A DNA stretch of 64,000 bases from Ruditapes philippinarum (Eukaryota): NCBI RefSeq assembly GCF_026571515.1, contig NW_026862270.1, positions 1-64,000 on the forward strand. Reading direction: 5' to 3'. Positions within the stretch are counted from its first letter, which is position 1; every line of letters begins with the position of its first letter. This document shows positions 10,392-63,928 of the stretch, piece by piece. A program made the position numbers and the translations under genes. The notes under the pieces were generated by a model that worked only from the letters and a program-made list of their open reading frames with translations, was not told where the DNA came from and did no database searches.

Positions 10392-10941
10392 TTAAAACAA
10401 CATGAGTCACTTCCAAATTCAAAGCAGGCCAAGTCATTTATGAAAATTTAAAGGTAAACTTCAATAACTTTTAGCTGTATCACATAAAACATCAAGACTG
10501 AAAATACAAGTAGTGAAATATTTTATCAATTTACTTAATCTTGGTACATCAAGGCTATTTCAGATGTTGTGTAAGTGCTCTATAATATATTATGCAGGGC
10601 ACGTAAACTTGTCAATAATTGGAAAAGAAAGTGAAAATTACCTAAATTTGTACAGAAGTTAACTGCGTAATTTCATATCATCATCTATAAATATATGACT
10701 TGATCATATAAACATCTTTTTTTTTTCTTCAAGGTTCAGTAATCTATATGTTTGCCAATCACTTAAGTATGTTTTAAATGTGAACAGTGCATTTTTATGA
10801 GATGAGAAAGGGGATATTTTACTGAGTATGTTTTATTTTCATTACCTTTTTTTTTTTAACTTAAATTTTGATTTTCCAAAAAAAAACCAAAAAAACAACA
10901 ATTTTCACTTACTTACTATCAAAGAAATTAAATGACCAGCA

Positions 10942-12900
10942 TTTTAGACCAAATCAATGTTATACCAGTGTTTAAGACCAAATCAATGTTATACCGGTGT
11001 TTAAGACCAAATCAATGTTATACCAGTGTTTAAGACCAAATCAATGTTATACCAGTGTTTAGGGCCAAATCAATGTTATACCAGTGTGTTAGACCAGTGT
11101 TTAGGACCAATTTAATGTTATACCAGTGTTAAAGACCAAATCAATGTAATACCAGTGTTTAGGGCCAAATCAATGTTATACTGGTATTTTTGACCAAATC
11201 AATGTTATACCACTGTTTAGGGCCAAATCAATGTTGTACCAGTGTGTTAGACCAGTGTTTAGGACCAATTTAATGTTATACCAGTGTTAAAGACCAAATC
11301 AATGTTATACCAGTGTTTAGGACCAAATCAATGTTATACTGGTATTTTTGACCAAATCAATGTTATACCAGTGTTTAAGACCAAATCAATATTATACCAG
11401 TGTTTAAGACCAAATCAATGTTATACCGGTGTTTTAGACCAAATCAACATTATACCAGTGTTTAGGACCAAATCAATGTTATACAAGTGTTTAAGACCAA
11501 ATTAATGTAATACCAGTGTTTAAGACCATATCAATGTTATACCAGAGTTTAAGACCAAATCAATGTTATACCAGTGTTTAGGACCAAATCAATGTTATAC
11601 TGGTATTTTAGACCAAATCAATGTTATATCAGTGTTTAAGACCAAATCAATGTTATACCAGTGTTTAGAACCAAATCAATGTTATACTGGTATTTTAGAC
11701 CAAATCAATGTTATACTGGTATTTTAGACCAAATCAATGTTATACCAGTGTTTAGGACCAAATCAATGTTATACCGGTGTTTTAGACCAAATCAATGTTA
11801 TACCAGTGTTTAAGAGCAAATCAATGTTATACTGGTATTTTAGACCAAATCAATGTTATACTGGTATTTTAGACCAAATCAATGTTATACCAGTGTTTAA
11901 GACCCAAATTAATGTTATACCAGTGTTTAGGACCAAATCAATATTATACCAGTGTTTAGGACCAAATTAATGTTATACCAGTGTTTAGGACCAAATCAAT
12001 GTTTATACTGGTATTTTAGACCAAATCAATGTTATACCAGTGTTTAGGACCAAATCAATGTTATACTGGTATTTTAGACCAAATCAATGTTATACCAGAG
12101 TTTAAGACCAAATCAATGTTATACCAGTGTTTAAGACCAAATGAATGTTATACCCGTGTTTAGGACCAAATCAATGTTATACCAATGTTAAGGACCAAAT
12201 CAATGTTATACTGGTATTTTAGACCAAATCTATGTTATATCAGTGTTTAAGACCAAATCAATATTATACCAGTGTTTAAGACCAAATCAATATTATACCA
12301 GTGTTAAAGACCAAATCAATGTTATACTGGTGTTTTAGACCAAATCAATGTTATACCAGTGTTTAAGGCCAAATCAATGTTATACCAGTATTTAAGACCC
12401 AAATCAATGTTCAACCAGTGTTAAGGACCAAATCAATGTTATACCAGTGTGTTAGACCAGTGTTTAGGACCAATTTAATGTTATACCAGTGTTTTAGACC
12501 AAATTAATGTTATACCAGTGTTTAGGGCCAAATCAATTTTATACCAGTGTTTAGGACAGAATCAATGTTATACCAGTGTTTAAGACCAAATCAATGTTAT
12601 ACCAGTGTTTAGGACCAAATCAATGTTATACTGGTATTTTAGACCAAATCAATGTTATACTGGTATTTTAGACCAAATCAATGTTATACTGGTATTTAAG
12701 ACCAAATCAATGTTATACTGGTGTTTTAGACCAAATCAATGTTATACTGGTGTTTTAGACCAAATCAATGAAATACCAGTGTCTAAGGCCAAATAAACAA
12801 TACCAGTGTTTTAGACCAAATCGTAGAAATACTAGTCTTTTAGACCAAAACAATGTCATAATAGTGTTTTAGACCAAATCAATGTTGTACAAATCAATGT
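10942..12900. repeat. 29-bp minisatellite (GACCAAATCAATGTTATACCAGTGTTTAA), about 65 units
   Basis: GACC recurs at 10947, 10976, 11005 and onward; two main unit variants are interleaved. Confidence 0.97.
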
Positions 12901-12993: not shown

Positions 12994-14430
12994 ACTAGAA
13001 ATGTGTCATCATGCCACGGATGCCCCCGCATGCAGCCAAAATTTCAGATGTTATAATATTTAGTTCCAAATTTGTTTGCACAAATTATTTTTTTAATTTT
13101 AAGTTCAAAGCCCTTAAAACTGTTCAATGTTAACACAAACCATTTTCATACAATGTTCAAGGCACTGAAATTATTCAGTCTTAACCTTTTGAAAAAAGCA
13201 TATTTCATATTTGTAGCCAAAATAATGGCTACATACATTTCCACAAAAGTATGAGTGCTGAAACTGAAAGTTCAAAATTTTTCCAACATTCAAGAAAGAT
13301 AAGTTTGTCCAAAATCATTGAACCATGACCAAATTCAAACTTAAACTGCTTATTCCTAAGATGTATCTATATTATTTTCAAAGTGAAAGGGACATAACTC
13401 TGCCTAAAATCATCGAACCATGACCAAATTTAAACTTGACCTGCGCCTTCCTTTGACATATTCATATGTCAAATTTGAGTTTAATATGTAACACTGTTGG
13501 GTAGATAATGAACAGAAACTGTAAATTTCATATTATTTTCAAAGTGAAGGGGCATAACTCTGCCAAAAATCATTGAACCATGACCAAATTTGAACTTGAC
13601 CTGGGCATTCCAAAAACATATCCATATGTCAAATTTGAGTTGAATGTGTTGTACCGTTGGGGAGATAATAAACAGAAACTGAAAATTTCATATTATTTTC
13701 AAAGTGAAAGGGGCATAACTCTGCCAAAAATCATCGAACCATGACCAAATTCGAACTTGACCTGTATTTTTTCATGACATATCCATATGGCAAGTTTGAG
13801 TTGAATGTGTTGTACCGTTGGGGAGATAATGAACGGAAACTGAAAATTTCATTTTATTTTAAAGTAAAAGGGGCATAACTCTGCCAAAAATCATCGAACC
13901 ATGACCAAATTCGAACTTGACCTGTATTTTTTCATGATATATCTATATGTCAAATTTGAGTTGAATTAGTTGTACCGTTGGGGAGATAATGAACGGAAAC
14001 TGAAAATTTCATATTATTTCAAAGTGAAAGGGGCATAACTCTGCCAAAAATCATCGAACTATGACCAAATTCGAACTTGACCTCTATTTTTTCATGACAT
14101 ATCTATATGTCAAGTTTGAGTTGAATATGTTGTACCGTTGGGGAGATAATGAACGGAAACTGAAAATTTCATTTTATTTTAAAGTAAAAGGGGCATAACC
14201 ATGCCAAAAATCATCGAACCATGACCAAATTCGAACTTGACCTGTATTTTCTCATGACATATCCATATGTCAAATTTGAGTTGAATGTGTGCAACCGTTA
14301 CTAAGATAATGAACGGAAACTGATGATGACGGAATGACAGAATGACGGAAGGACGGAATGACGGAAGGACGGAAGGACGGAACAGGGTAACACTATATGC
14401 CCCGGCCATTACATGGCGGGGGCATAAAAA
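12994..14430 (-). mobile_element. HINE with 160-bp tandem core
   Basis: ACTAG end; subTIRs ATGCCCCCGC (13020-13029) and GCGGGGGCAT (14416-14425); GGGCATAAC core motif at about 13550, 13711, 13871, 14031 and 14191; (GACGGAAG/T)n microsatellite. Confidence 0.85.
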
Positions 14431-14492
14431 GTTATACTAGTGTTTTATACCAATCATTGTATTACAAATGTGTTAGACAAATACATATAATA

Positions 14493-15302
14493 ACAAGCAA
14501 TTATCATAGTATTGCAAGCAATCCATAAGTCCCCTACCGGTTAGAACCCCCATCAACATTCTGTTTTAAGCCTATTTGTTGCCAAGGCAACCAATATTTT
14601 TTCAGAATAGGAAGAAAAGATAAGATATGCATAATCTCCAGACTGCCATCTACCCTTATGTCAAGTTTCATAAAAATATTTCCATTACTTTTTGAGTTAT
14701 CACTGGATTCAGTTTATGTGTAAAATTTGCCATATTTTCAGTCTATTTGTTGTCATAGCAACCAGAATTTTCAACATAGGGAGAAAAGAAAAAGACTTGC
14801 ATAATCTCCATACTGCCATCTACCCATATTACAAGTTTCATAAAAATATTTCTATTACTTTTTGCGTTAACACTGGAACCAGTTTATGTGTAAAATTTGC
14901 CATATTTTCAGCCTATTTGTTGCCATAGCAACCAGAATTTTCAACATAGGAAGAAAAGAAAAAAACGTGCATAATCTCCAGACTGCCATCTACCCATATT
15001 TCAAGTTTCATAAAAATATTTCCAGTACTTTTTGCGTTATCACTGGATCCAGTTTATGTGTAAAATTTGCCATATTTTCAGCCTATTTGTTGCCGTGGCA
15101 ACCAGAATTTTCAACATAGGAAGAAAAGAAAAAGACGTCCATAATCTCCATACTGCCATCTATCCATATATCAAGTTTCATGAAAATATTTTCAGTACTT
15201 TTCAAGTTATCGCCGGATCCAGTTTTGTGGACGGTCTGACTGACAGACAGACGGACAGAGGGTAAACCTAAAGTCCCTTCCGGTAAACGGGTAGGGGACT
15301 AA
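14493..15302 (-). mobile_element. HINE with 170-bp tandem core
   Basis: ACAAG end; palindrome ATTGC-AA-GCAAT; subTIRs AGTCCCCTACC (14528-14538) and GGTAGGGGACT (15290-15300); cores spaced 170 bp; (GACA/GACG)n microsatellite. Confidence 0.85.
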
Positions 15303-15983: not shown

Positions 15984-16955
15984 ACAAGAGCTGTCCGTAA
16001 GACAGCGCGCTCGACTTTTTTATTGCTTGCCAATAAAAAAAGTTTTTGCAGTAAAAGGCAATACAAGAATCTCTGTATTTTTAAAGTGAACTAGTTGTTT
16101 GATACCCTTGAATATTACAGCAATGTTTATATGACATAATTTATGGTAAAGTGAACAAGTGGATAGGAATGAATTTTTTTAGATTTTTTAAGTTTTTTAG
16201 TGCTTGCCTATAATACAAAACATTGACAGTTAAGGGCCATAATTCAAATAAAATCTTTGACAGAATTACCTTCTCCTGGACATGTTTGGGAATCATGATT
16301 GTAAACAAGTATTCCAACTTTCAAATTAATATCTCAAACAGTTCAGTCAAAAAGTGGACTGGTACTAAAAACTTAACCAAGATTCTAAGTCGATAAAAGG
16401 CCTTAATTTTTAAAACAAATCCTTGACAGAGTTACCTTCTCTTGCGTACAGATGGGGTAATGATGTGAAATAGCATTAAAAGTTTCAAAGCAATATCTCA
16501 AAGGGTTAAGGCAATAAGTGGATTTTACCCATATTCAATGTATTTTCTAAGTCAAAAAGGGGCATAATTCTGTCAAAAACCTTGACAGAGTTATGTCCTC
16601 TTGTCTGTTGATGAAGGTCGTGATGGTAAACAAGTATGGTCAGTTTCAAAGCAATACCTCCAATGGTTTTGAAATAAAGTGAGGTGGTACAAAAAACTTA
16701 ACCAAGCTCAATACACTTTCTAAGTCAAAAAAGGGCCATAATTCTGTCAAAAACCTTGACAGAGTTATGTACTCTTGTCTGTAGATGGAGGTTATGATGG
16801 TGAACAAGTATGGTAAGTTTCAAAGCCATACTTGTAATACTTCTGAAATAAAGTGGGGTGGTACGAAAAACTTAACCAAGGTGTGACGCCAACGCCGACG
16901 CCGACGCCGGGGCGAGTAGGATAGCTCCCCTTTTCATAGAAAAGTCGAGCTAAAA
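15984..16955 (-). mobile_element. HINE with degenerate ~170-bp core
   Basis: ACAAG end; palindrome GCTGTC..GACAGC; subTIRs GCTCGACTTTT (16009-16019) and AAAAGTCGAGC (16940-16950); (GACGCC)n microsatellite. Confidence 0.85.
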
Positions 16956-17723: not shown

Positions 17724-20652
17724 ACAAGAAAAGCATTGATGCAAAGCATCAAAGGGCGTCCAAGCAAGAAATGCAGCAAGTGAAGATGAACTAGTACACA
17801 TATGATGACAAGATATTTTTATAAACTACCAGAAATGTATACCACTTATGAATAAGCGGACGAAAGACATTGTTCATTATGAACTTTGATTGGCATGCTA
17901 GAGATTAGAATATTACTTGTTATTTCTTTATGATCGTGGTTATTAATAGCAACGGATATACATGTATGCAATCATTTATAATCCATATGTGTAACGCATG
18001 ATCAACACGTACCACACATTTGTCCCTTATTATGTACATGTTATCGCTATTAGCGAAGACCCCCTTAAGGTATCTGTTCACACTTTAAGTTAGTAAAAAT
18101 ATGACACTGGTTATATTACCATATTGATCATGTTGAGCATAATTGTTTATTATACAATAATTGTAATATCTATTAATTTTAATTTAAAAAAATACAAATT
18201 TTATGAATATTGTTTTCTTTTATTCTTTTTTGTGTTTATGTGCTATTTTAATACTGAGTTTTTACTACTCTTTTTTATTAAAATTGTAAAATAAATTTTA
18301 AGAATTCAATTGTCATATTGACCGACGATTATAAGTCAAAGCTTAACTGGAAAAAGTCAGTAAATTATGGTTTATCTTTCAATACATAATATTGTTTATT
18401 CTTAAACCATGTACATGTACATTGTATTTTTCTTTATCATTTTTTAAATTATCGATCAATTGAATAATTCATAAAATCTAATTTGTAACTTTGAATAATT
18501 CCTCGGCATCTTTACTAAACACGGATAACAAATTGAATAATTAAATAAAATGTTTCAAAGTTGATAATGTCATTTTAATACCATAAAAAATGTACCTTTT
18601 TCTCAATTTATGTACATATTTATTGTTTTTAAGTCATATAGATAAAATGAAACATGCTATTGTTGTTTTTTTCTAATTGTAACGATATCAAACATCTACT
18701 CCAAAACCGGGAGAGACCGGACAATATAACGTGTGGTACTATTCGCCGGTCACTAGTAAATCCTGGTCAAAATAGACCGGGAGAGACCGGCATTTACCGA
18801 TAGGACTGATAAAAAGATATATCTATAAATAGGTTTTTGGAATATTTAGGTCATCAACTGATCATTCTAGGATACATGTACAACAATAACATACCATGAC
18901 ATGATAACCGACTGTGTACTACAAAATGATAAATAAACAAGAAACATGGCAATGCCATGAAACCAGGTTTTCAATTATCACCATTGTAGATAAATATGTT
19001 GTATTTGAAATACAAATACAAGCAACAAACAATGTAACTATGTGCAATGTAAAACATGAATAATGTAGGAGGAATTGCCACTGAAGAAGTGTTCACTATA
19101 ATATTATGTATAAGGAAAAAAACAAAGGGCCATAATTAGGTCAAAAACTATCCAATCACAAAACCCCGACAATATGTGCCAGGGTGCTTGATGACAAAGC
19201 TTCTGTGAAAGTTTGAACAAAATCCGTTGAGAAATGTAGGACGAGTTCAGCACAGAAGAATTTGTTCACTATAATTATATTGATAATTCTGTATAATGAA
19301 AAACAAGTTACAAAGTAGACATGAAATAATATATCATATCTTTTTAAATTACCTCCAAAAGATGATATGACCTTTGACTGCCAAATCAAGTTAAAATCAT
19401 GTAAACAGGATTTTCAATGTTAATGTCACTGTGACCTTGACCTTGGAGCCAGCCATGCGGAACATGCGTTCTGCACGTCATCTTGATGTGGTAAACATTT
19501 GTCTGAAGTTTCATCAAAATTCTTCAAAGGGTTGAAGAGTTACAGAGCGGACAGGATTTTCAATGTTAATGTCACTGTGACCTTGACCTTGGAGCCAGCC
19601 ATGCGGAACATGCGTTCTGCACGTCATCTTGATGTGGTAAACATTTGTCTGAAGTTTCATCAAAATTCTTCAAAGGGTTTGAAGAGTTACAGAGCGGACA
19701 GGATTTTCAATGTTAATGTCACTGTGACCTTGACCTTGGAGCCAGCCATGCGGAACATGCGTTCTGCACGTCATCTTGATGTGGTAAACATTTGTCTGAA
19801 GTTTCATCAAAAATTCTTCAAAGGGTTGAAGAGTTACAGAGCGGACAGGATTTCAATGTTAATGTCACTGTGACCTTGACCTTGGAGCCAGCCATGCGGA
19901 ACATGCGTTCTGCACGTCATCTTGATGTGGTAAACATTTGTCTGAAGTTTCATCAAAATTCTTCAAAGGGTTGAAGAGTTACAGAGCGGACACAATTTCG
20001 TTTGACGCCCGCCCGCCCATCCGCCAATGTCACTGTGACCTTGACCTTGGAGCCAGCCATGCGGAACATGCGTTCTGCACGTCATCTTGATGTGGTAAAC
20101 ATTTGTCTGAAGTTTCATCAAAATTCTTCAAAGGGTTGAAGAGTTACAGAGCGGACAGGATTTTCAAATGTTAATGTCACTGTGACCTTGACCTTGGAGC
20201 CAGCCATGCGGAACATGCGTTCTGCACGTCATCTTGATGTGGTAAACATTTGTCTGAAGTTTCATCAAAATTCTTCAAAGGGTTGAAGAGTTACAGAGCG
20301 GACACAATTTCGTTTGACGCCCGCCCATCCGCCCATCCCCCCATCCGCCCATCCGCCCGCCATACCCCAATCTAATAACCAGGATTTTCAAAATTGAAAA
20401 CCTGGTTAAAAACCCCGAAGAGCGCGATTTATTGACGGAAAAGGTTATTTCATTTGTAAATGTTTGCATTGCGAAAATTCATTGTAACATATCGCGACAT
20501 TTCATTCTTATTTAATAATCAAGCACCCTCATACCGATCGGAATTTTCGGCTTTTATTATGACCGACTAAAAGGCTCGAGAAGTTGCTGTCGCCCTTTCA
20601 CAAAATCTGATCTCATTCCATAAGAGCGCCGCGCTTCGGCGCGGACGCCAAT
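17724..20652 (-). mobile_element. Non-autonomous Helentron-like element, copy 1 (interrupted by a nested element)
   Basis: ACAAG end; palindrome TTGATGC-AAA-GCATCAA; subTIRs GGCGTCC and GGACGCC; GC-rich hairpin CCGCGCTTCGGCGCGG; colinear inverted copy at 47781-49325. Confidence 0.85.
18937..20410 (-). mobile_element. Nested HINE with near-identical 146-bp tandem core
   Basis: Palindrome CATGGC-AAT-GCCATG; subTIRs AACCAGGTTTTCAATT (18961-18976) and AATTGAAAACCTGGTT (20392-20407); six almost identical cores; (GCCC/ATCC)n microsatellite; absent from the copy at 47781-49325. Confidence 0.9.
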
Positions 20653-26100: not shown

Positions 26101-27331
26101 GCAAAGATATCATTATCAAAACGGAGAATTATGGAAATATTTTGTTCATTACGAGACGCATTTACTTATTTCAATCCATATTTTACACAATAAAGATCAA
26201 TTCAGACTCTCCATTGCGATTTTCAGTAACCAATTAGCCTAGATGGAAATTTTATATTACTATGGACTTCGTTGACCCATGAGGAATCGTGGACAATAGG
26301 TATCTAGAGTATTTACGTGAAATTTATCAAATACTCTATTGACCAGTTACCGTTGCTGGCGGAGGGGGAGACTATAGCTCACGGCACACTAGTTGAATGA
26401 TGTTCGCTCAACATTTTTTTTCTTCAGGAATTAATAACAAGTGTAATTGATTACGGGGGTTAAAAAAGTATAGCTTCGTCACAAACTTGAATGAAAGGTG
26501 ACATGAAATTTTTATTACATGTACGCAATAGGTAAAACAGATATCGGTAAATTGAGAGTAATGAATAAACCTTTTATACTTGAATATACAATATATTGTT
26601 AAAGCCGTCATTCTAAAGTGATAGTAATTATATAGCTGAAGAGATCGAGTGGATAAAAAAACAAATATTGGAAATAATTTTGACGGTCGCTTCCAATTTA
26701 TATTCACGACTTTTGTAAAGGAAGGTATATTGTATAATCAAATACTGTGCTTGAAAGTAACATAATAAGGACGGATAAGTAAATTCTAATTTAAATAAAT
26801 TTCATTTCAACACAAAGTTTGTTTGTAAATGAACACTAAAAAGTGGTAATTATAAGCAGACACCAAAGGAGTATACAGTTAAATGAGATGCCACATTCGA
26901 TAAAATCCAGTTTAGTATACATATAAAATCATCGAAGGTTGAAAAAGGCAAGTTAGTTTCTAACCAAGAGTTTATTTATGATTATAGAAAATAAGACAGA
27001 AAAGTAACACAAACAGGAAATCAGGGGTAATAAACAATGTTATGAATACAAATACCGGAGATGTGTATCTGGGAATTTAACACCCTGAACTAGTAAAGTA
27101 GGTTAATTTGACTCCATCAACTATAGCAAATTTGTGACAAGCGTTAGTAAATAAGTTCACTGAAAATGTCAATTTAAAAAGCTGCAATTTTTATCAGCAA
27201 GGAATAATAAAACTATGAAGGATTGGATTTTAAACAATGATAAAACTTGTTTAACACTAACACTATATTAAAACTGGATTAATTGGAATTTAATAGTAAT
27301 TTGCTTGCAATTTTAAAGGAAACAAATCACA

Positions 27332-28150
27332 ATGTTTGGAAATAATATGTACGGACACTACATGCATATGGGTGGTCAATCCAACTCTGGTTTCGGGACA
27401 ACAGGGTTTGGCAGTCAACACCAACCTCAAAGTGCTTTTGGGATGACCAAAAAGGGACAAACTGGAGCATTTGGTCAGGCAAATCCATTCCTAGACCCCA
27501 ATGGTATGATGCATCATGGGTATGATGGTATTCATCATCATGGTCACCATGGAATTTTGCGCCAGAATTCCCTTCTCGGAGAAATGACCCAGTCAAAAGC
27601 CGAACGTGCAAAAGGAGTTAAGCCATGGGCATTTTCAAGTATAAGCTTCCCAGTTGGACATGATGACAATGTACTATCAACTATGTATGACAAACCACTT
27701 GAAAAGCCTAAGCCAAAGCCTACTTTGGGAAGACAGCAGTCTTTCTCTGTTGCAGACAGTCTCGAACGTAAAAGAGCACCAAGTTTCAGTTCTGATCCTG
27801 ATAAGATGAGAAGTCGAACAATAAGTTCATCATCTTTACCTACAGGACGTCCTAAGTTTAGCAGATCATTGTCAATTGCAGATGATATCACTGAGCCTGT
27901 TAACATGGACATGGCAATTCCTTTCCTCCGTAGACAGCAGTCTTTGGATGTTGAAAAAATGCGCAGGAAATCACTTTCCCCAAAAAACCATTGCTTCCAC
28001 TCAACATGTTCAAACACAGACGGTCATCTAAAGTCAAAGAGAATATGGATAAATCTGAAACTTCCAGCTTGCAATTATCTACAAGGTCAAGAAGCAACAC
28101 TGGTGAAAGTCATGTTTCTTCTAGGTCATCCACAGGATCACAAAAACTAA
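27332..28150 (+). CDS. ORF A: low-complexity G/H/M-rich then RxxS-rich protein; probable N-terminus of the giant tetraspanin
   Basis: 272-aa ATG ORF in good context (ACAATGT); repeated basophilic kinase motifs RQNSL, RQQSF, RAPSF, RSLSI, RQQSL; overlaps ORF B in the -1 frame. Confidence 0.75.
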   Translation: MFGNNMYGHYMHMGGQSNSGFGTTGFGSQHQPQSAFGMTKKGQTGAFGQANPFLDPNGMMHHGYDGIHHHGHHGILRQNSLLGEMTQSKAERAKGVKPWAFSSISFPVGHDDNVLSTMYDKPLEKPKPKPTLGRQQSFSVADSLERKRAPSFSSDPDKMRSRTISSSSLPTGRPKFSRSLSIADDITEPVNMDMAIPFLRRQQSLDVEKMRRKSLSPKNHCFHSTCSNTDGHLKSKRIWINLKLPACNYLQGQEATLVKVMFLLGHPQDHKN

Positions 28151-31137
28151 GTCCAACAAGTCAACAAAAATTATCACTAAACAACAGCCCAAGTAAGCCC
28201 AACAGCACAAATGATGAGGACAAATTAATTCTTAGCCTTTTGAATCCTGAGGTCCCAGATGATGATGTATTTCGGTCTAATAATTCACGTGAAGATAAAA
28301 ATATTCAAATGGAAAATGAAATAGCAAAAGTTCAGGCAAAGCCAGTTGAAGTTTCACCAATACAGCAGCCAAATCATTTGGATGTTTCTTCGCTACAATC
28401 CCCTACCTTAGTTACCAAACGAGTGCAACACCTTATCAGCAATGAACCCGACACTGAATCTGTTAAATCAAATGATTCAGAGCAGTTAACCCCACAACCA
28501 GCGAGATCTAGAGCAAGTAGCAAATCATCTAGAAAATCAAAATCACCAGCAAGAAGCACTGCTCTACTTGTTCCAGGACCATCTTTGACAGCTCCAAGAA
28601 AACCAGAAAACAAAATAGATAGTAAGCTGGTTCCTTATACTGACCAAACAGATTCTGAAAACTCTGATGTGTATTATGAATGCAATAACCAAAGTCAGAA
28701 AAATTCTCCAATACTTGCTAAAAATGAAAGCAATCAAGCTGGAAAGGGTAAGAAAAGATCAGTAAAGAAACCAAGAAACACTTGCAGCTCAAGTACATGT
28801 ACTGATGGCGAAGATACCACTTCAACTTGTGAGACTCCACCTAGATCAGTATTTCGCGACATTCAACAAAAGCATTACCCTGAAGCACCAACAAACAAAT
28901 ATCCTCATGATACGGATTTTATACCAAAAGACATTCATGAAGCAAAAACTTTACCTATTAGAGAAAAAGGACTACAAAGCAAACAAGGAGAAAAGGCAGG
29001 CGTAAGACGATTATCTAACAATAATCCTTATACTAGAAAAGTAAATGAAATAAGTGATGAAGATAATGCTAAAGTATCAAACCATGAACTACTTGTGCCT
29101 AGCTATGCACCAGTTTTAAAAGGTGAACCAGGTTCAAAAGAAACTTTGAATAATGATATAGGAACTGCTGACAGTTCTGAAAGTGGATATGCTACAAGTT
29201 ATATTCCAACTTCACCAAAGAACTATGACCATATAAAAGTATCTCAATTTGTTAACTCTCTTCCAAATTACCCAGACATGGATGAACATAGATCTGAAAG
29301 TAGTCATAATGATGGTGTTCTTAATGGTTCAGAAACCGAAAGTGATCTTGATGATGATAATAACAAGATACAGAACTACCCACGCGCTGACTTAGACATC
29401 ACAAGCATAAACTGTGCTAGTGGAAGTGACTCTGAAAATGAATCTGTCAGAACTAATAACTCAATATCAAAACTTGAGGTCATGAAAATTCTTGAAAGTC
29501 CAACAGATGTAAGAGAAAGAGTAACAAACGCAATGAATGGAAAATCAAATGAAAAGCTTACATCTAAGTATGATGATACTTTACCAAAATATTCAAGCAT
29601 CAGAAAAGGAAGCAATGCTTCAGAAACTGAGCTGCTTAAACTGATGAAACCAGAAAAGGATGAAATCGATAGTGCTCCAGAGAAAATTGAAAAGAAGAAA
29701 CACGTTGAGGTTAATTGTGTAGTTGTAAGTACAGACTCACCTTTAGGGGAAGGAGCTGAAACGAAACTATTGAGGCATCCAGAGAAACCATCATTTGCTT
29801 CATCTGTGATTGATAAGTTGAGTTTTAGGAGAGAATATTCATCTGTATATCAAAGTAAATCAACAAACTGTGTAGATGGACTACTGCATTTTCTAAATCT
29901 GTTGCTATTTCTCTCAAGTGCTGGGGTTGTTGGCTTTGGCATATGGCTTCAGCTGAAAGACTTCAATGTGAATGATATAACTATTATTCTAGGTAACAAT
30001 TTATTGCAAATTATAACATACGTTGCAATAGCAGGAGCAGGGGTGGCATTATTAGCAGCATGTTGTTTATGTTGTGGTATAAGACAGGATAAATCTGGTC
30101 TTGGATTCTATGCATTTGTTCTTATTGGCGTTGTCATAGCATTTACTTGTGCTGCAGTGTTAAGTTACATATTTTCCAACAAACTGGGAGGAACAGATTT
30201 CAGATTCGATTTTAAAGATAGACTTGTGACAATGTATGGTGTAGATGATGGAGAAGTACAGCATCAGTTTTTAACAAGTGCTTGGGACAATATGCAATCT
30301 GAATTTCAATGTTGTGGGGGTGATGGGAATGGAAATGACACAGAGTCATGGCTTTTGTATAGAAAAAGTGCCTGGTATCTAAAATTTGCTGATAAAGGTA
30401 AAATGTTTGTGCCAGAGAGCTGCTGCAAAAAGAACTCAAACATACAAATTTGCCAAGGTGGTGATCCAGATTTACTAGGACCACCAAGGTATGCACCACC
30501 AAAAAAACTACAGAAATATTACAAGGAATTAAATACAAATCTTAATCACCATGGTTGTTATGATAATTTTTCAGCTTACTTGTCAACATTATGTAAGTAC
30601 ATAGCTATAGTGTGTGGAAGCTTAGCTGGACTTTATTTCCTCACTGTGATGCTTACCTGGGTTTTCTGTTTTAAGAAAAGTCAGGACTCCAATGAAAGTT
30701 TCATGGAGGACTCTTATTATGACATCGAAGATGATGTGTTTAATAGTGAAGATGGAAACGTTAGAAACAAAGAGATAGATGATAATCATTTAATGGAAGA
30801 GACAAAGTTCATTAATATGCCAATTAAATCTGCTCTCAAAGCACCTGAGGTCATGGTGAATGGTAATATTAGAAATTCAGACAATGACAATAGGAGAATG
30901 TATGCAAGTGAAAGAATTAACTATCATGATAATGATAATGAAAGTTCTGAGGACGAGAGTGATGAAGATGATGATGTGGAATCTGGTAGGAGTACGCCAA
31001 GTGAGGTTATAGACCGGAGAAACATGTGGCTAGCAGGCTCAACTGCTGGTCATCTTCTGTCTATAGCTATTGAGGAAGAAGACAGTAACTTTGAAGACTC
31101 TGATATTGAGAGTCCACGTAACTCAGCAAATGTTTAA
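27991..31137 (+). CDS. ORF B: intronless tetraspanin-family protein with very long disordered N-terminus and acidic C-tail
   Basis: Four hydrophobic segments within about 29870-30672; large extracellular loop with AWDxMQSEFQCCG, VPESCC and HHGC (6 Cys); juxtamembrane CCLCC. First in-frame ATG is at 28006; fusion with ORF A gives 1268 aa. Confidence 0.92.
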   Translation: MLPLNMFKHRRSSKVKENMDKSETSSLQLSTRSRSNTGESHVSSRSSTGSQKLSPTSQQKLSLNNSPSKPNSTNDEDKLILSLLNPEVPDDDVFRSNNSREDKNIQMENEIAKVQAKPVEVSPIQQPNHLDVSSLQSPTLVTKRVQHLISNEPDTESVKSNDSEQLTPQPARSRASSKSSRKSKSPARSTALLVPGPSLTAPRKPENKIDSKLVPYTDQTDSENSDVYYECNNQSQKNSPILAKNESNQAGKGKKRSVKKPRNTCSSSTCTDGEDTTSTCETPPRSVFRDIQQKHYPEAPTNKYPHDTDFIPKDIHEAKTLPIREKGLQSKQGEKAGVRRLSNNNPYTRKVNEISDEDNAKVSNHELLVPSYAPVLKGEPGSKETLNNDIGTADSSESGYATSYIPTSPKNYDHIKVSQFVNSLPNYPDMDEHRSESSHNDGVLNGSETESDLDDDNNKIQNYPRADLDITSINCASGSDSENESVRTNNSISKLEVMKILESPTDVRERVTNAMNGKSNEKLTSKYDDTLPKYSSIRKGSNASETELLKLMKPEKDEIDSAPEKIEKKKHVEVNCVVVSTDSPLGEGAETKLLRHPEKPSFASSVIDKLSFRREYSSVYQSKSTNCVDGLLHFLNLLLFLSSAGVVGFGIWLQLKDFNVNDITIILGNNLLQIITYVAIAGAGVALLAACCLCCGIRQDKSGLGFYAFVLIGVVIAFTCAAVLSYIFSNKLGGTDFRFDFKDRLVTMYGVDDGEVQHQFLTSAWDNMQSEFQCCGGDGNGNDTESWLLYRKSAWYLKFADKGKMFVPESCCKKNSNIQICQGGDPDLLGPPRYAPPKKLQKYYKELNTNLNHHGCYDNFSAYLSTLCKYIAIVCGSLAGLYFLTVMLTWVFCFKKSQDSNESFMEDSYYDIEDDVFNSEDGNVRNKEIDDNHLMEETKFINMPIKSALKAPEVMVNGNIRNSDNDNRRMYASERINYHDNDNESSEDESDEDDDVESGRSTPSEVIDRRNMWLAGSTAGHLLSIAIEEEDSNFEDSDIESPRNSANV

Positions 31138-37269: not shown

Positions 37270-38175
37270 TAGGCAGTTAAAGCAACATGCTTCCAGATTC
37301 ATACAAACCACTATGCAAATCTGACCAGTTAACAGCAGCACACCTCCAGATTAATACAAACATCAATGACAATTTAACAAGTTAAAGCAGCACACCTCCA
37401 AATTAATACAAACATTAATGACTATTTGGCCAGTTAAATGAAATGCAGCACACCTCTAGATTAATACAATCAGGCCAGTTAAAGCAGCACACCTCCATAT
37501 TCATACAAACATATTTGACAATTTAGCCAGTTAAGTGCAGCACACCTCCAGATTCATACAAACATTAATGACAATAAGGCCAATTAAATGCAGCACACCT
37601 CCAGATTTATACAAACATTAATGACAATTTAGCCAGTTAAAGCAGCAAAACTTCAGATTCATATAAACATTAATCCCAATTTAGCCAGTTAAGCAGCACA
37701 CCTCAAGATTCATATAAACAGCTATAGCAATTTAGCCAGTTAAAGCAGCACACCTCCAGATTCATACAAACATCAATGACAATTTGGCCAGTTAAAGCAG
37801 CACACCTCCAGATTCATACAAACATCAATGACAATTTGGCCAGTTAAAGCAGCACACCTCCAGATTCATACAAACATCAATGACAATTTGTCCAGTTAAA
37901 GCAGCACACCTCCAGATTCATACAAACAGCTATAGCAATTTAGCCAGTTAAAGCAGCACACCTCCAGAATTACAATTAAGCCAGTTAAAGCAGCACACCA
38001 CCAGATTCATACAAACAGCTATAATAATTTAGCCAGTAAAAGCATCACACCTCCAGATTCAATATAACATTATATGGTAATTCAGCCAGTTAAAGCAGCA
38101 CACCTCCAGATTCATTCACAAACATCAATGGCAATTTAGCCAGTTAAAGCAGCACATACCTAGATTCATGCAAAT
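37270..38175. repeat. 52-bp minisatellite (GCCAGTTAAAGCAGCACACCTCCAGATTCATACAAACATCAATGACAATTTG), about 17 units
   Basis: Period of 52, e.g. 37787 to 37839. Confidence 0.95.
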
Positions 38176-39758: not shown

Positions 39759-40831
39759 AAAAAAAGTTTGTCCAAATCAGGACGGTTAACCATTTTGATT
39801 GAATATGGTAACTTCAGGTGCATGAATTGATTAGTCTATAAATGTCTCCATTTTTCTCTTTCTAGAAAATTCTCCATTATTTCTATACTTCTATATAAAG
39901 GTTCATTTGGGTTAGATCAAATTAAGCTATTAATAGTGGTCTCAGGGGAATGTATAAAACTGCCAATTTATTCTGTAATTGCGCCAAATGTGAAATCTAT
40001 ACATACATACATACAATGTGCAATCATAATGTATGTAATTGCACTGGAGAATCAAGATAACTATTTACATGTATAATGTTAGTAATGACATTTTGCCTTG
40101 AATATAGACTATTAAAGGTCACTTTTCTATGTCAATAATGTAATGAAGGTCAAGATCATTTTATTTCATGTGGTCATGGTAAGTGGGGAAATATAATTAC
40201 TTTAACCTTGCCCATGTTATCATGGAGTTAAAGGATAACAAAATAAAAACATTTTCTACACATCTCTACCTTTATCGGTTTCATTATATGATGTCACACT
40301 GTTTTACTATAAAAGGGAAACTACTCAAAGTAAACTTTAGATTTACACATGATGATTAACCTCCCTTAATTTTTTATGATCTTTTTTAACTGCTAATTTT
40401 ATTAAAACAACATTTATTACATTGTGTAAGAATCACCGAGAAATAAGGAAATATAAAGATGCTTTTGCTTTATATTTTCAGTTACAATGATATTTTCAGA
40501 TATTAGAGGCTTTTGCAAATACATTTTCAGTTATTAAGTTTCTTTTGCTTTACATATTTCAGTAACTAAGTCACTTCTGCTTTATATTTTCCATTACAAA
40601 GATACATTTGATTTATAATTTCAGTTACAAAGATGCTTTTGCTTTATATTTTTCAGTTACAAATGGCAACTCACTATCTCTCAACAAGATTCTACTGAGA
40701 CTCTAAAAGGCTGAACTTTTCCAAACCAGGTATCCCAACAAGAAGTATAAAACAGTTCCTTCTTCTAACCATTCAAAACATTGTGATATGTACCAAAATT
40801 CAGAAATTTGAACAGGAATTCCTGAAACACA

Positions 40832-41995
40832 ATGGAAGAAGAGGATGAAGCCAATCTTATGGCTGAGTTAGAAGAGGAAACTGATGAAGCTGTGAAGCAT
40901 CAACAAAATGGAGAGTCAGCAGAGCCAATTGATGATGACATTCAACACACAGTTGGGCAACTACTGCATTCCAAGTCCAAACAGAGACATAACTTGGTAC
41001 GTAAAGATTCAAAAAGGGACTTAAGTATAGAGGATATAGTGAGTAAAGCTCTGCAAGCAGAGAGAAACCATTGGAAGGAAAGGTTACAAATGTCAATGCA
41101 TGAGATTGACAGACAACATAAAGTCATACTAACTACACAAGGTGGATTACAGGAATTAGTAAAGTCACTGAAACATTCAACAATGAAACATGTGGTGTTT
41201 AACGAGGAAGAAGAAGACGACGATAGCAATGATGATCTTGATCATGAAGTGGTTACAGCAAGACTGATGGAAAACTTGAAGTTTCAGGTCAGACAGTTAA
41301 GAGTCAAAGCTGGTGTGTCTGAGGTCTCCAAAACAGAAATTGAAGAAAGTAAACAGAAGCATAGAATGTTGGTGAAAGAGTTAAAAGCAAAGGCTGAGAG
41401 TCTTCAAGATGAAAAGGAAACACTGGAATTAGATCTACGTGATAAGAATGAAAAAATTGCATTCCTGACAAAAGAAAATGCTGCACTTTACAGGCAGTGT
41501 CAGAAACTACAGAAGATTATAGCCAAATATAATGAGACTCACTGTGGAGCTAATTTCCATCTCAATGCTATGGACAAACCAAAAGAGACCTTGTATGATA
41601 AGAAACGTGAAAAGAGGTATTCCACCACTTCTTATGACTCATCTGAAAGTACATTAAGTACAGTACGTGAAAGAACGTATGTTGAAGGCGATCAGCTTGC
41701 AACATATCCCTCCTCTCTTGAAGAATCAGCCATCATAAAAGACAGACTTAAGAGAAGTATCTACTCAGCAAGAAATGGTGATTACAGATCTAGCAATGTG
41801 GCACAGTGCATTAGGTGTCAGAAACTGTTCAAGCCAGTTGAAAATACACACAAGTCATGTCAGTTTCATCATAAAGGAAGAGAGATAAAGGAAAAATTTC
41901 AAGAGAATGGAAAGCTTGAAAAAGTATTGTATAAATGGTCTTGTTGCAAAAAGCCATTGGATTCTCCTGGATGCTGTTATGGTTTCCACATTTAG
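40832..41995 (+). CDS. Single-exon coiled-coil protein with C-terminal CHORD-like Cys/His zinc-binding module
   Basis: 387-aa ATG ORF; acidic N-terminus; heptad-rich region LMENLKFQ...LQKIIAKY; C-terminal CxxC-x13-CxxH-x24-CC-x8-Cx4H containing WSCC and PGC. Confidence 0.88.
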   Translation: MEEEDEANLMAELEEETDEAVKHQQNGESAEPIDDDIQHTVGQLLHSKSKQRHNLVRKDSKRDLSIEDIVSKALQAERNHWKERLQMSMHEIDRQHKVILTTQGGLQELVKSLKHSTMKHVVFNEEEEDDDSNDDLDHEVVTARLMENLKFQVRQLRVKAGVSEVSKTEIEESKQKHRMLVKELKAKAESLQDEKETLELDLRDKNEKIAFLTKENAALYRQCQKLQKIIAKYNETHCGANFHLNAMDKPKETLYDKKREKRYSTTSYDSSESTLSTVRERTYVEGDQLATYPSSLEESAIIKDRLKRSIYSARNGDYRSSNVAQCIRCQKLFKPVENTHKSCQFHHKGREIKEKFQENGKLEKVLYKWSCCKKPLDSPGCCYGFHI

Positions 41996-50300: not shown

Positions 50301-53300
50301 CCTTTATAATAATAATATTTAAACAATTTCTCATATATTTTGTTGCTTTGCTAATTTAAACACTTTTTTGGTAATATCTCAGCAGTCGGTCACGACCAAC
50401 TTTGGCCTGTAGACTAAAGGGTTCATTTGATACAACACACATCCTCTGTGACCTTTTGATCTCAAAATCATTAGGGGTTATTTTCTAGTTATGACAAACC
50501 TTCACACCACATCTTACGACTGTAAGCGAAAAGGTTCTCTGGTTATTAGTCGAACAATCTAGAGGTGTGACCTGATGATGTGACATATCTGTGCCATTCA
50601 AACATTATTGATGTACGTGCAATTCTTAAATTTCTTAATGAAATTTCATCATATATTATTACTGCTGCCTGCATACAACAGGATATTTTTTGTATCATTG
50701 AAAGCACTATTTTTTTTATTTTTTCCAGGCAAAATCCAGTCAACATGAGAAGATAACTGAGTTACTACTGTTGCTGCCTAAACGTGGGTCAAAAGCTTTC
50801 CCAATCTTCTTAGAGGGTGTCAAAAAATATTCTCCCTTCCTGGGCGACAAACTTGAAATGAACTATGAAAAAGGTAAGAAACAATAGTTTTAATCTAAAA
50901 ATGTTTGTAAATGTTTATATTATGTACATTGTATATTTGATAGAGACTCATAGGGAAGACTGGGCATGCCCAACTATGTTGCCTCTTTAAATAAAGTCAA
51001 TAAAGTCTTTATTATTATTATTATTACTTATTGAATCAATGTATACAATGGCATGAGTAGATAATAATAAATTGTTTTAAAGGGACTTGACACTTAGGTC
51101 TTTTGGCATGACGGGACTGGAAATAAAAAAATTTGAGATTTATGTCCAATTTGAAGTAAGTCTGGACCAATCACTTTAAATTTGTTCATTTACTCACTCC
51201 CTTTTTTCCAAAATAATAACCATATAAAATGACCACAAATTGAAAAACCTTCCACACTTTTCACATATTGAGCTACAAATACCACAAAAATATGATTTTC
51301 AGTTTTATCTGAGTAACATATTTCATAATTATCTTTTGCATATCTTTTTGTTTTAAAGTGGCCTACTTAATCTTTGTAAAAAAAAAATACAATCAAATGC
51401 TTTGTTTTTATGCTTTTGGACCTCAATGGAATTCCTTTAATTAATCCCTAAAATCTTTTATTAAAGGCACATTATGCCTCTTTCTATCTGAGAGGAAAGG
51501 GAGTGTAAATACACTAAACTTATATGTTGCTTTAACATTAAGTTTTCTTTTCAAATGCTTTTCAGAACAGAAACTGTTTACCTACGAGCACAAAGACACT
51601 CATGACACTTCAAAGGAGACCGTTGATAATGAGAACAACACTGCAAAGCCTTCTAAACATCAGGAGAAAGCTTTCGAAAAGACCTTCAAGAGCAAGGAAA
51701 TCTCTGAGCGGCGGCACTCCCTGTCGGTCTCAACCACAAACCACGCAGTGTCCTCAAACATGCCACAACAAACACTGAACAATATGTACACCAAATTAAA
51801 GTCCCACCTTCATAAGCATTCTCATGTAGATTCCGAAGCTATAACACCTGAACCTATTACCATTAAGATGGTGGACAAGCTTCTTGATGACATCTGCACT
51901 CACCTTGACGAGCACGAGATGACATTCTCTCAATGTCATGCGTTGCTAGGAGGGAGGGACAGGAACTATCCCCTAGTCTCACACATTATAAACTTGCAGA
52001 AATCAAAGAGACAACTAGAACAAGATGTGAAGGAAAAGGATGTACAGAAGAATAAATATGCTGATCATATCAGTAAACTGGAGAACAGATGTAGGAACCA
52101 GGTATCATTTTTATGTTTTCAGTTATATCAGGGTTCAAACAGAAATCTGTCAACTAAATTTAAGCACTTTTCAATGACTTCTTTAGGTCAATTTTGCATT
52201 TTCCAGTAGCTTCTTAGCAAACAATCAAAGTGTGAAGCAAAGATTTCTATCTAAAAGCAATTGTACCCTCCAGACACCTAATCTGCATTTTACTTGAGGG
52301 TGTTACCTCTCTCATTGCTTCTCTAATACTCTATGCTTTTTTACTTTCTCCCACACATGTATACCATCTACTTCAAATATCTTCATGCATACCCACATTA
52401 GCACTCGGGACTGTGCATTCCAAACATTGCTTTATTTGATAACCGATTAATAGTCCTTTTCAAGGACACACTCAATTCAAGCACTTTTCAAGACATAGAT
52501 AGTTTTCAAGCACTTTTCAAGACCAGTGCATACTATGGTTGAAGTAAAAACCATTAAAGCAGGCATAAAATAAATCTAAGAAATCAGGAATTACAGTTGT
52601 ATTCTTGTTAAACCATAATGACAAAATGAATGTTGAATGAATTTTGTTTTAGTTTGAAGTCATTCCACAACTTGTTTTATTGGATTGCCAGGTCCATTTT
52701 GTTAATGTACATTAATATTGGTTTTATAGGAGTTACTTTCCCTCGAAAAGTTTCATGCAAAAAACCAGTTAAGCATTGAAATTGGTTAAATGAGATCAAT
52801 TAGTAAATAAGATAATGATAAAGACAAAAAATAATCATTTAAAAGAAATTCCTTTGTAAAATTATGTTTATAACTTTTTTCTAAATGTTTTCCTGTCACC
52901 AATAGGCACCTCAGTAAAATCAATGACATTGTCTTAGATAACTACATATTTTCATCTCATACGAGAATTCAAAAGTCCCCATTTTGTTACATTTTCGCAT
53001 CCACACATCTTACTGTTAAAACTTTATTCTTTACAGGCAACAGAAATCAATCACTTGAACGAAGAGATTAAGAAGTTTAAAGAAGAAATTGAAAAGTTAC
53101 AAGCTATTAATTCTGAAAGAGAAGAAAAACAAAAGATCATAGATGAGCTAAGAAAAATGGTGATGGATGCAGATACCACCAAGAAAAGTAAACTAAGAAG
53201 TTCTTATTTAGCCTTACATTATGACACTAATAGCACAGAAATTAAACAGTTAAGAGCAGAGGTAAGAAGCTTGAAGCTTGACAATGAAAACTTAAAGACA

Positions 53301-53807
53301 GAAAATCTAATGCTGAAAAAGTCTGAAAATCTAAAGAAACTTGCAAAAATGAGGGAAGACCAGGTAAATCCTAAAATTGAAACAGTTAATGGACCACAAT
53401 CTATGTTTGAAGAACCAAAGGGAGGTAATCTTAAAGTAAAACAAAGACATGTTTATGGAGGAGTTACCTCCCAGAGTTCACAAATGAGGAGTTCATTTGG
53501 TAGACGACTTGAGTCAGATAGGGGCATGTTTGCCGCTCAGCCACATCCAGAAAGACCTGGAACAAGAGGTTCTGTTGATAATATACATAATATAGACCAA
53601 GATGAGAAAAGTAAAGCTTCCAGATCAAGAGAAAGAGAGAGGGATTACCAAGATTTAGATTTCAAGTTTTCTAATAGTCAAAATGGAGCTGTTGGTCAGA
53701 AAAGAAGTCCAAGTAAAATAGATCAAATAAAAAGTATTTTCTTGAGTGTACAGCTGCTAAATATAAAAAACACTATAATTTGTAAAAATTTCCCAACTGA
53801 AATTTGA
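47370..53807 (+). CDS. CARD plus coiled-coil protein, 4 coding exons: 47370-47504, 50729-50873, 51566-52101, 53037-53807 (~528 aa)
   Basis: All introns GT-AG with compatible phases (0, 1, 0). Exons 1-2 encode a CARD (MNDIQKKVLRNHHGDILKNL...LLLLLPKRGSKAFPIFLEGV); exons 3-4 encode a linker and long coiled coil. The extreme C-terminus is uncertain. Confidence 0.88.
47781..49325 (+). mobile_element. Non-autonomous Helentron-like element, copy 2 (uninterrupted), in intron 1 of the CARD gene
   Basis: Reverse complement of 17724-20652 without the nested insert; ends in TTGATGCTTTGCATCAA...CTTGT. Confidence 0.88.
49326..50019 (-). mobile_element. Older HINE relic (left remnant at about 47685-47780) split by the 47781-49325 element
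   Basis: Degenerate cores AAACTAAGTGACCC..GGTGATGCTACATGCCAAATA; terminal GAGCAC-TTT-GTGCTC..GGTGAGCT hairpin. Confidence 0.65.
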
Positions 53808-62728: not shown

Positions 62729-62743
62729 GATACAGAGGAAGTT

Positions 62744-63928
62744 TTGCCTCAGGTAGGTAGGTTGAAATATTTTTCTCATATGTGGAAATTTTATACAAAG
62801 GATGATTGGATCCTTGAAACCATAAACGGTTATAAAATTGAGCTTGAAAGCATTCCTTCACAAGATTTCATTCCTTCTGAAATAAGTTTTTCTCCAAAAG
62901 AAAGAGAAGTTGTTGATAATGAAATCTTGGAATTAAGTAAAAAAGGAGCTATAGTTCATTCTTATTGGGAAGAAAATCAATTTTTATCAAATATTTTTGT
63001 TGTTCCTAAACCAAATGGGAAATATAGACCTATAATTAATTTGAAAAGACTCAATAAATTTGTTAAATATGAACATTTTAAACAGGAACATTTCAAAGTA
63101 GTTTTAGATTTAATACAACAAAATGATTTCTTTACATCAGTAGACCTTTGTGATGCATATTTTTCAGTACCTATTCATATAGATTACCAAAAATTTTTGA
63201 AATTTGAGTGGAATAATGTTCTTTGGAAATTTGTTTGTTTACCTTTTGGCTTAAGTTCAGCTCCAAAAGTGTTTACAAAAATTTTGAAACCAGTTTATGC
63301 CTGGCTTAGGCAGCAGGGTGTGCGATGTGCATATTATATTGACGATTCTCTCAATATGAATCAAACTGCCGAAGTAAATCATTTTTGTGTTTTTAAATTT
63401 CAAAATAACAGACCTTTGATTTGTAATTTTACAGTTCTTACATTTAGTTTTAAGAAGAAAAAAGAAAAAGTAAATAAATATAAGAAGAATGGTAAAAGAA
63501 TAAGGCCTGTTAAAGTTCAATTTCAATGTACCTCAGATGCCTCGTGTTTAGGCTGGGGATGTTGTGATATTGCATCAAACAAGATTGCTCAAGGTCAATG
63601 GTCAGTTATAGAAGCACAAATGCATATCAATTATTTAGAGCTTTTAGCTATTTTCCTAACTCTTAAATCATTATACAAGCATGTTTCTGATACACATATT
63701 CAGATTCAGTGTGATAATGTTTGTGCTATTTCCTATGTTAATGACATGGGTGGGATGGCATCCATGGGAATGAATGATTTAGCTTTTGACATATGGACTT
63801 GGTGTCTGAAAAGAAATATTTTCATATCTGCTGTGTATATACCAGGTTCAGACAATGTTGTTGCTGATTATTTCTCTAGGAATTTCTCTGACTCCACAGA
63901 ATGGATGTTAAAATCAGATATTTTTTAA
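62744..63928 (+). pseudogene. DIRS reverse transcriptase-RNase H (internally deleted)
   Basis: GRLKYF..W..WILETINGY, YRPIINLKRLN, DLCDAYF, LPFGLSSAP and YIDD (63335-63346); RNase H SDASCLGWG, HINYLELLA, CDN, NVVADYFSR. The RT C-terminal part is replaced by low-complexity sequence. Confidence 0.9.

Follow-up and report, generated by a model that had tools for sequence, protein, structure and literature searches.

A single-coding-exon giant tetraspanin of clams with a predicted VAP-tethering, kinase-switched arm

Do the two overlapping open reading frames (ORFs) at 27332..31137 in a 64,000-nucleotide stretch of the Ruditapes philippinarum genome (contig NW_026862270.1, forward strand; the whole stretch is called the window below) encode one very long tetraspanin, and if so, what might its extended cytoplasmic ends do? 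Tetraspanins are taken to be small organisers acting through partners, and the protein described here is about four times the usual size. We propose that the locus holds a single-coding-exon giant tetraspanin (~1270 residues) whose N-terminal arm is predicted to tether it to VAP and to be switched by kinases, a reading to which we give a probability of about 0.5. The longest tetraspanin tails that we found in print, those of fungal Tsp2, measure ~200 residues (PMC2278132, in part).

A giant tetraspanin from one coding exon

The reading frames are arranged as follows.

27296..27318, + strand: possible splice acceptor directly 5' of the ATG (a weak AAG acceptor, from sequence only)
27332 (ATG) to 28148-28150 (stop), + strand: ORF A of the ORF list
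27332..27985, + strand: ORF A part of the giant, residues 1-218, a basic disordered head with a G/F/H-rich start, matched by all 22 relatives
27955-31137, + strand: ORF B of the ORF list, stop to stop, 1060 residues, overlapping ORF A
27955..31137, + strand: ORF B as the remaining N-terminus, tetraspanin domain, acidic tail and stop
27975..27989, + strand: frameshift in the homopolymer run TTT-CCCC-AAAAAA-CC, absent from 22 of 22 relatives, which read through unbroken

A search with residues 580-1043 as the query, in which 7999 candidates with lengths of 573-1826 residues only were scored, gave the window's own 1043-residue form and 22 relatives of 1172-1412 residues. Five of these are named (Mercenaria LOC123540544, Mactra 'Tetraspanin-18', Mya LOC128205654 and two from Dreissena), and the other 17 are ENA or Logan records. 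By tblastn, every one of the 22 matches the window in two pieces, one per frame, that join at ~27955-28085: the N-terminal ~190-240 residues match ORF A and the remainder matches ORF B. Because all 22 relatives are one continuous chain spanning both ORFs, we take the fused form of ~1267 residues to be the true protein, and because they are unbroken there, an assembly error in a homopolymer is the most likely cause of the break at ~27975-27989. None of the 22 shares the frameshift, which is private to this window. The 1043-residue model of the locus has probably been truncated through this sequence error.

Other explanations of the break fare poorly. Pseudogene decay was rejected, as neither half has decayed: ORF A has changes in 0 of 35 conserved columns, ORF B has them in 3 of 160, each a conservative one, and identity to the Mercenaria protein is 74-88%, depending on the region. 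An intron across the frameshift was also rejected; the 12 GT-AG pairs capable of restoring the frame have poor donors, and all of them would cut out residues of the Mercenaria protein. It is quite improbable that the break is real, whether through programmed -1 frameshifting on the tandem slippery sequence C CCA AAA AAC or as a young null or truncating allele. The shift needed is indeed -1, the run fits the X XXY YYZ pattern, and the protein collection contains the 1043-residue form beginning at ATG 28006; however, the two closest relatives have Ile in place of the Met at 28006, two more such heptamers lie in frame within ORF B, and there is no decay on either side of the shift. Programmed frameshifting in particular was rejected, since in spite of the heptamer none of the 22 relatives is split and no RNA structure was found 3' of the run (-6.9 versus -8.0 +/- 2.4 kcal/mol in 300 shuffles, z +0.46).

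The same alignments contain no intron-sized gap between the window and the 22 relatives, with only the two pieces per relative, and on this evidence the coding sequence of the giant gene is a single exon, as a preliminary description of the locus had it. Five relatives come from contigs of 97 kb-3.7 Mb, which suggests continuous genomic ORFs there too, and an intron in the 5' untranslated region is possible. That the open N-terminal frame goes untranslated or is skipped, with transcripts splicing into the tetraspanin module, is hardly credible. Four pyrimidine-rich AG sites are present in 28000-29900, but at 2.1 per kb their density equals the window background of 2.2, and there is no acceptor-like site within 600 nt of the first transmembrane segment (TM1). 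In 22 relatives, at identities down to ~33%, the frame has ~800 codons without a stop; third codon positions have the lowest GC (0.23-0.33) in all of head, N-terminus and domain, which is the pattern of coding DNA; and the NCBI models from four genera are full length. The long N-terminus is coding and constrained, with the conserved islands described below.

The domain itself is made up of the following elements.

29878..30672, + strand: tetraspanin domain (PF00335) with TM1-TM4, CCG, PxSCC, six large-loop cysteines, an N-glycosylation sequon and membrane-proximal cysteines
29878-29955, 30010-30078, 30097-30174 and 30598-30672, + strand: four hydrophobic segments, TM1-TM4, with the small and large extracellular loops
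30310-30318, + strand: CCG, large loop
30409-30426, + strand: VPESCC, large loop
~30556, + strand: last large-loop Cys, from sequence

The complete four-pass module with CCG and PxSCC that was first noted is borne out by Pfam, which places PF00335 at residues 643-906 of ORF B (E 3.3e-29), and by the four hydrophobic segments and six large-loop cysteines. The large loop has six cysteines in 24 of 24 proteins and the sequon is found in 23 of them; CCG and the further loop cysteines (PxSCC, GC) are invariant columns, as are the TM1 Asn and the Cys at the ends of TM2 and TM4. TM3 and TM4 of the window protein contain no Glu or Gln, and the same is described for fungal Tsp3 (PMC2278132, in part). 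The top PDB sequence match is a 257-residue tetraspanin (8jj5_A, E 1e-6), with weak matches to solved tetraspanins that include CD53 and CD9. By all sequence tests applied the giant protein is a tetraspanin, in which the short cytoplasmic tails and ancestral introns 1-6, typical of the family but not defining it, are absent.

A HMMER scan of 1.84 billion representatives returned 438 matches, and the best 150 of these comprise seven giants, a 712-residue protein of the freshwater mussel Sinanodonta woodiana, a 517-residue match that looks like a read-through gene model, and others of at most 425 residues. With the Sinanodonta protein as the query, itself alone was returned among 8000 candidates scored. 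A scan of prokaryote genomes gave 52 pattern matches, of which a single one, on a Campylobacterales contig, passed weakly (E 3e-5, 37%) and was set aside as noise. By these searches the giants make up an old and conserved subfamily of clams, seen here in heteroconch bivalves only, and are not a one-off of this genome. The giants stand in databases under automatic names; five of their gene identifiers gave 0 papers, and a search with subscription journals and supplementary tables outside its range found no literature on the subfamily. A subfamily of 1170-1410 residues kept across clams widens the known tetraspanin design.

Two observations concern individual relatives. Dreissena has two giant copies (P0015 and P0023), of which P0023 lacks the conserved tail end; with 38 of 170 conserved columns changed it departs further than any other row, and it may be a duplicate under relaxing constraint. 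A 179-residue fragment (P0025) close to the giant P0016 contains TM1-TM3 only and is perhaps a truncated copy.

The disordered arm and a predicted VAP-binding site

From ATG 28006 there are 624 residues before TM1, or ~850 with ORF A, and 154 residues after TM4, the latter with 27% D+E; the lengths and the acidic tail agree with the preliminary description. Disorder was scored as FoldIndex below 0, a simple charge-hydropathy index, and applies to 69% of ORF A, 89% of the N-terminal part of ORF B and 98% of the tail, compared with 29% of the tetraspanin domain. Composition is less uniform than the S/D/E/K-rich N-terminus originally described: residues 281-800 have a net acidic charge but the first 280 a net basic one (+11 to +20), and ORF A, rich in S/G/P/K/R, is basic and not D/E-rich. 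At a window threshold of 0.70 there are 15 conserved islands outside the domain, 14 N-terminal and one in the tail. The motifs referred to below are these.

27554-27598, + strand: RQNS, conserved RxxS site, ORF A
27728-27745, + strand: RQQS, conserved RxxS site, ORF A
27773-27799, + strand: RAPSF, conserved RxxS site, ORF A
27806-27826, + strand: RSRTIS, conserved RxxS site, ORF A
27896-27946, + strand: PxNMD..RRQQS, conserved RxxS site, ORF A
28222..28248, + strand: LILSL[LM]NP conserved island
28651..28689, + strand: FFAT-like motif, an acidic/Ser tract and the core VYYECNN, predicted VAP-binding site
28804..29502, + strand: acidic middle region with conserved islands DGEDTTST, SSESGYATS, KVxxFVNSLP, CxSGSDSE and LEVMKILESP
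29167-29199, + strand: ESGY.TS island, nearly invariant
30673..31134, + strand: acidic C-terminal tail, ending in SANV
30694-30732, + strand: YYDI near the membrane, tail, a YxxPhi or second FFAT-like site
31015-31104, + strand: conserved RRNxWL..GHLLSxAIEEEDSNFEDSD, tail

The earlier account of the arm's motifs was incomplete, as it made no mention of the motif resembling FFAT (a pair of phenylalanines within an acidic tract), here an acidic tract followed by x[YF]Y[DE]C. Sites were scored with the matrix of PMC7705450 Table EV4, adapted by setting position 4 to D/E and using the upstream tract only. The site is the best or joint-best of the N-terminus in 22 of 23 giants and scores 2 or less in 21, in which the per-protein shuffle P is 0-0.11 (0.027 for the window, 300 trials). 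Core position 2 is Y or F and position 4 is D or E in all 23, with Phe replacing Tyr at position 2 in five; position 5 is C or A in 22 (Ala in one), position 3 is Tyr in 21, and the tract is D/E/S-rich. These choices of Y/F, D/E and C/A are substitutions left unpenalised in the published matrix (PMC7705450), and position 4 of a conventional FFAT is 'invariably E or D' (PMC7705450, in part). The stated criteria for a FFAT motif ask for a score under 3 and a segment that is conserved, cytoplasmic and unstructured (PMC8306308, in part), and with the adapted matrix 21 of the 23 giants have such a score, in a segment that is disordered, cytoplasmic and conserved. The tested VAP binder SCRN1 has a nearly identical core, LFYDCVD, with a tabulated score of 2 (PMC7705450), and VAP binding was abolished in its F402A mutant (PMC6792018, in part). 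A FFAT-like site is found in only 2 of 60 short paralogues. The distance from the motif to TM1 is 400-463 residues with a coefficient of variation of 0.05, compared with 0.10 for the distance from the start to the motif; this span corresponds to ~15 nm end to end by the usual scaling law, within the range of contact-site gaps. In 8 of 23 giants there is a second FFAT-like site, scoring 2 and placed 14-20 residues beyond TM4, although it could be a tyrosine sorting signal instead. Among titles and the opening parts of abstracts we found no FFAT-bearing tetraspanin.

The distal head has a different character. RxxS/T is enriched in residues 1-280 in all six proteins tested (9-13 versus 3.2-4.4 expected, p<=0.014), and five such sites are retained in 19-22 of 22 full-length relatives; in residues 281-800 there is enrichment in none of the six (p 0.11-1.0). 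The kinase regulation proposed from RxxS motifs is upheld for the head and not for the rest of the arm. By consensus preference these sites may suit CaMK, PKA or PKD. The suggestion that the protein is able to signal directly was overstated: in the Pfam scan no folded or catalytic domain was found in the tails, and PF00335 was the sole family in 23 of 23 giants. The LILSL[LM]NP island is probably a short binding helix, to judge from its sequence, and in 12 of 23 it has what we take to be a dileucine-type sorting pattern. The ESGY..TS pattern, present in 22 of 23, resembles a phosphodegron of the beta-TrCP type (DSGxxS).

In the mechanism that we propose, retrocopying or intron loss would have been followed by growth of both cytoplasmic tails. 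The intact, glycosylated four-pass core would reach the plasma membrane (or late endosomes) and cluster with partner membrane proteins, as tetraspanins do, while the FFAT-like motif, on a flexible leash of ~425 residues, would bind the MSP domain of VAP anchored in the endoplasmic reticulum (ER); the giant itself would then tether the ER to the tetraspanin patch. Serines of the acidic tract, once phosphorylated, may add charge and strengthen VAP binding, and phosphorylation of the tract would tune affinity in the way reported for CERT. The distal basic RxxS head could act as a switch of partner binding of the CaMK/PKA/PKD and 14-3-3 type, and the remaining islands could dock further partners. 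The fuller proposal makes the giant an ER-contact tether in its own right: a clam-specific retrocopy that acquired its disordered arm of ~850 residues, a FFAT motif at near-constant spacing from the membrane and a head gated by kinases, and that would couple tetraspanin microdomains directly to VAP-based ER contacts. We put it forward tentatively, at somewhat less than even odds. If the FFAT motif works, it would join tetraspanin patches directly to ER contact sites. The protein is also a clean case of short linear motifs emerging in a new disordered region after gene duplication.

Several points weigh against a VAP tether. VAP binding and location of the giant are predictions. Core positions 1 and 7 are mostly non-acidic, so that the score is 1-2 and not 0, and acidic, Ser-rich sequence gives such matches in a few percent of shuffles. 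The adapted matrix, applied by hand, matches three of five published scores and is 0.5-1 too strict on the other two, and since the 23 proteins are related, the FFAT counts cannot be treated as independent. The motif has been lost from one giant (P0016) and is weaker in another (P0021). The similar stretch of the Sinanodonta protein, in an alignment short of significance (1.0 bit), carries Gly at position 4, and the islands SSESGYATS and LEVMKILESP are equally or more conserved and unexplained by the FFAT model.

The arm might also be read in two other ways. A general phospho-regulated adaptor lacking an ER tether, which is close to the preliminary description, seems to us somewhat unlikely: YY[DE]C would be a tyrosine-kinase/SH2 or acylation site, and the tails would bring 14-3-3, trafficking adaptors (by YxxPhi, dileucine and acidic cluster) and PDZ proteins to tetraspanin patches. 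It is consistent with the conserved RxxS cluster, with the [STA]AxV C-terminus of 11 of 23 giants and with the acidic-hydrophobic ends of short paralogues; acidic residues before Tyr also suit tyrosine kinases, and the Tyr at position 3 in 21 of 23 could still be a phosphosite. The Phe at position 2 in five giants and the Ala at position 5 in one, however, suit the FFAT rules better than phospho-Tyr or acylation. Clearly less likely is a membrane-shaping tetraspanin like peripherin-2/ROM1 or the uroplakins, in which the huge charged tails would serve as spacers or curvature elements in some specialised membrane of the clam, be it of cilia, siphon, sperm or a sensory cell. Among the feature neighbours in the ESM Atlas is a 'photoreceptor outer segment membrane glycoprotein 2' cluster (0.86 and 0.89, a lead only), the top PDB match is the 257-residue tetraspanin 8jj5_A, and basic head and acidic tail could interact; but Atlas scores under 0.9 are near chance, discrete short motifs are conserved and not composition alone, and the domain tree contained no peripherin or uroplakin.

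Origin within a mollusc tetraspanin group

Animal tetraspanins normally retain six ancient introns, TSPAN10 being an exception with none (PMC2650405, in part). A domain tree, which also answers the call for a phylogeny against mollusc tetraspanins, was a quick LG+G4 analysis of 77 of 125 domain rows, omitting nine giants and many short rows, with a midpoint root and branch values from the Shimodaira-Hasegawa-like approximate likelihood ratio test (SH-aLRT) only, with no bootstrap or approximately unbiased test. In it the 14 giants form one clade (SH-aLRT 99), joined by Sinanodonta at 98, and together these nest (SH-aLRT 98) in a 55-row mollusc 'tetraspanin-18-like' group that also contains two sets of short paralogues. 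The short paralogues come from Mactra, Mya, Dreissena, Mercenaria, Ruditapes and Sinanodonta as well as oysters, scallops, snails and octopus; since the same clams also have them, the giant is an extra copy. The tree does not single out either short set as donor.

Among oyster isoforms, some carry 10 extra residues where TM3 begins, and the segments ahead of CCG come in alternative versions; the models of ark shell, mussel and Mya leave out blocks at these same points and at others. Because such isoform and exon-skipped models, from which the paralogue splice junctions were inferred, differ inside the domain, the short group is spliced where the window gene is continuous. Retroposition, as first suggested, fits in that the giant gene is intronless where its paralogues are spliced; however, in-place intron loss within the spliced 'tetraspanin-18-like' group would fit too, and no convincing flanking repeats of retroposition were found at the locus. 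Nor were the tails gained outright, as short-paralogue N-termini already have a median of 80 residues (range 20-209). The giant N-terminal profile gave no significant match to Sinanodonta or the short paralogues, the best of which reached 6.2 bits.

Some further observations touch on this group. The stretch SETELLKL at 29620-29643 is common to the window and the Sinanodonta protein. A Crassostrea virginica short paralogue has isoforms (P0182, P0188, P0194 and P0205) with two versions of the CCG-bearing large-loop segment, which suggests mutually exclusive exons. The ESM Atlas also has a 52-member mollusc tetraspanin cluster with a 647-residue representative (score 0.86), automatically called 'neurofilament heavy polypeptide-like', possibly a second long-tailed tetraspanin family but a lead only.

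The rest of the window and comparison with known systems

Elsewhere in the window, a 389-codon ORF at 40826-41995 (+) has an acidic start, a predicted coiled-coil middle with weak TPR/MLP1-like Pfam matches below the cut-off, and a zinc-binding-like C-terminal Cys/His cluster (CxxC..C..H..WSCC..GC..H); a PDB search gave no match for it, and from its sequence it may be another single-exon gene. The segments 51445-52209 and 52938-53807 (+) are like large exons of one coiled-coil protein gene, with sub-threshold Pfam matches only. At 62678-63928 (+) there is a reverse transcriptase ORF (PF00078, E 3.7e-15), its middle apparently out of frame and its end RNase H-like, which we take to resemble a DIRS-type retroelement. 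Tandem arrays with units of 30, 29, 52 and 146-174 nt occupy 1-698, 744-1627, 1785-2680, 10935-12890, 13369-15229, 16544-16880, 19405-20326 and 37274-38168, and the 30-nt arrays produce spurious 'extensin-like' Pfam matches on the minus strand.

The closest known proteins are the mollusc paralogues with the automatic NCBI names 'tetraspanin-18-like', 'CD151-like' and 'CD82-like', which fall in the same clade as the giants (SH-aLRT 98), share a large-loop pattern with GPP, and resemble them in a moderately long basic N-terminus and a short acidic tail; unlike the giants they are ~300-450 residues long and spliced, with the shorter N-terminus and rare FFAT-like site described above. TSPAN10 (oculospanin) and RDS/ROM1 have tails longer than usual with a total of ~350 residues; they are vertebrate proteins, unlike the clam giants, and we know of no FFAT motif in them. 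In these animal tetraspanins either every ancient intron is gone or just one survives (PMC2650405, in part). Fungal Tsp2 and Tsp3, like the giants, are tetraspanins marked by long cytoplasmic tails, but these are of 83-200 (N) and 66-110 (C) residues compared with ~850 and ~155, and their loop has four cysteines where that of the giant has six (PMC2278132, in part).

For the proposed tether the nearest parallels are STARD3 (four-pass, endosome) and Kv2.1/2.2 (plasma membrane), multi-pass proteins that build ER contacts through a cytoplasmic FFAT-type motif (PMC7705450 and PMC6792018, each in part). The predicted FFAT of the giant, in a cytoplasmic segment of a multi-pass protein, resembles this layout, and its x[YF]Y[DE]C core resembles the LFYDCVD of SCRN1. 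STARD3 and Kv2 use a phospho-FFAT with S/T at position 4, whereas the giants have D/E, and the folds of STARD3, Kv2 and SCRN1 are unrelated to that of the giant, which has neither a lipid-transfer nor a channel domain.

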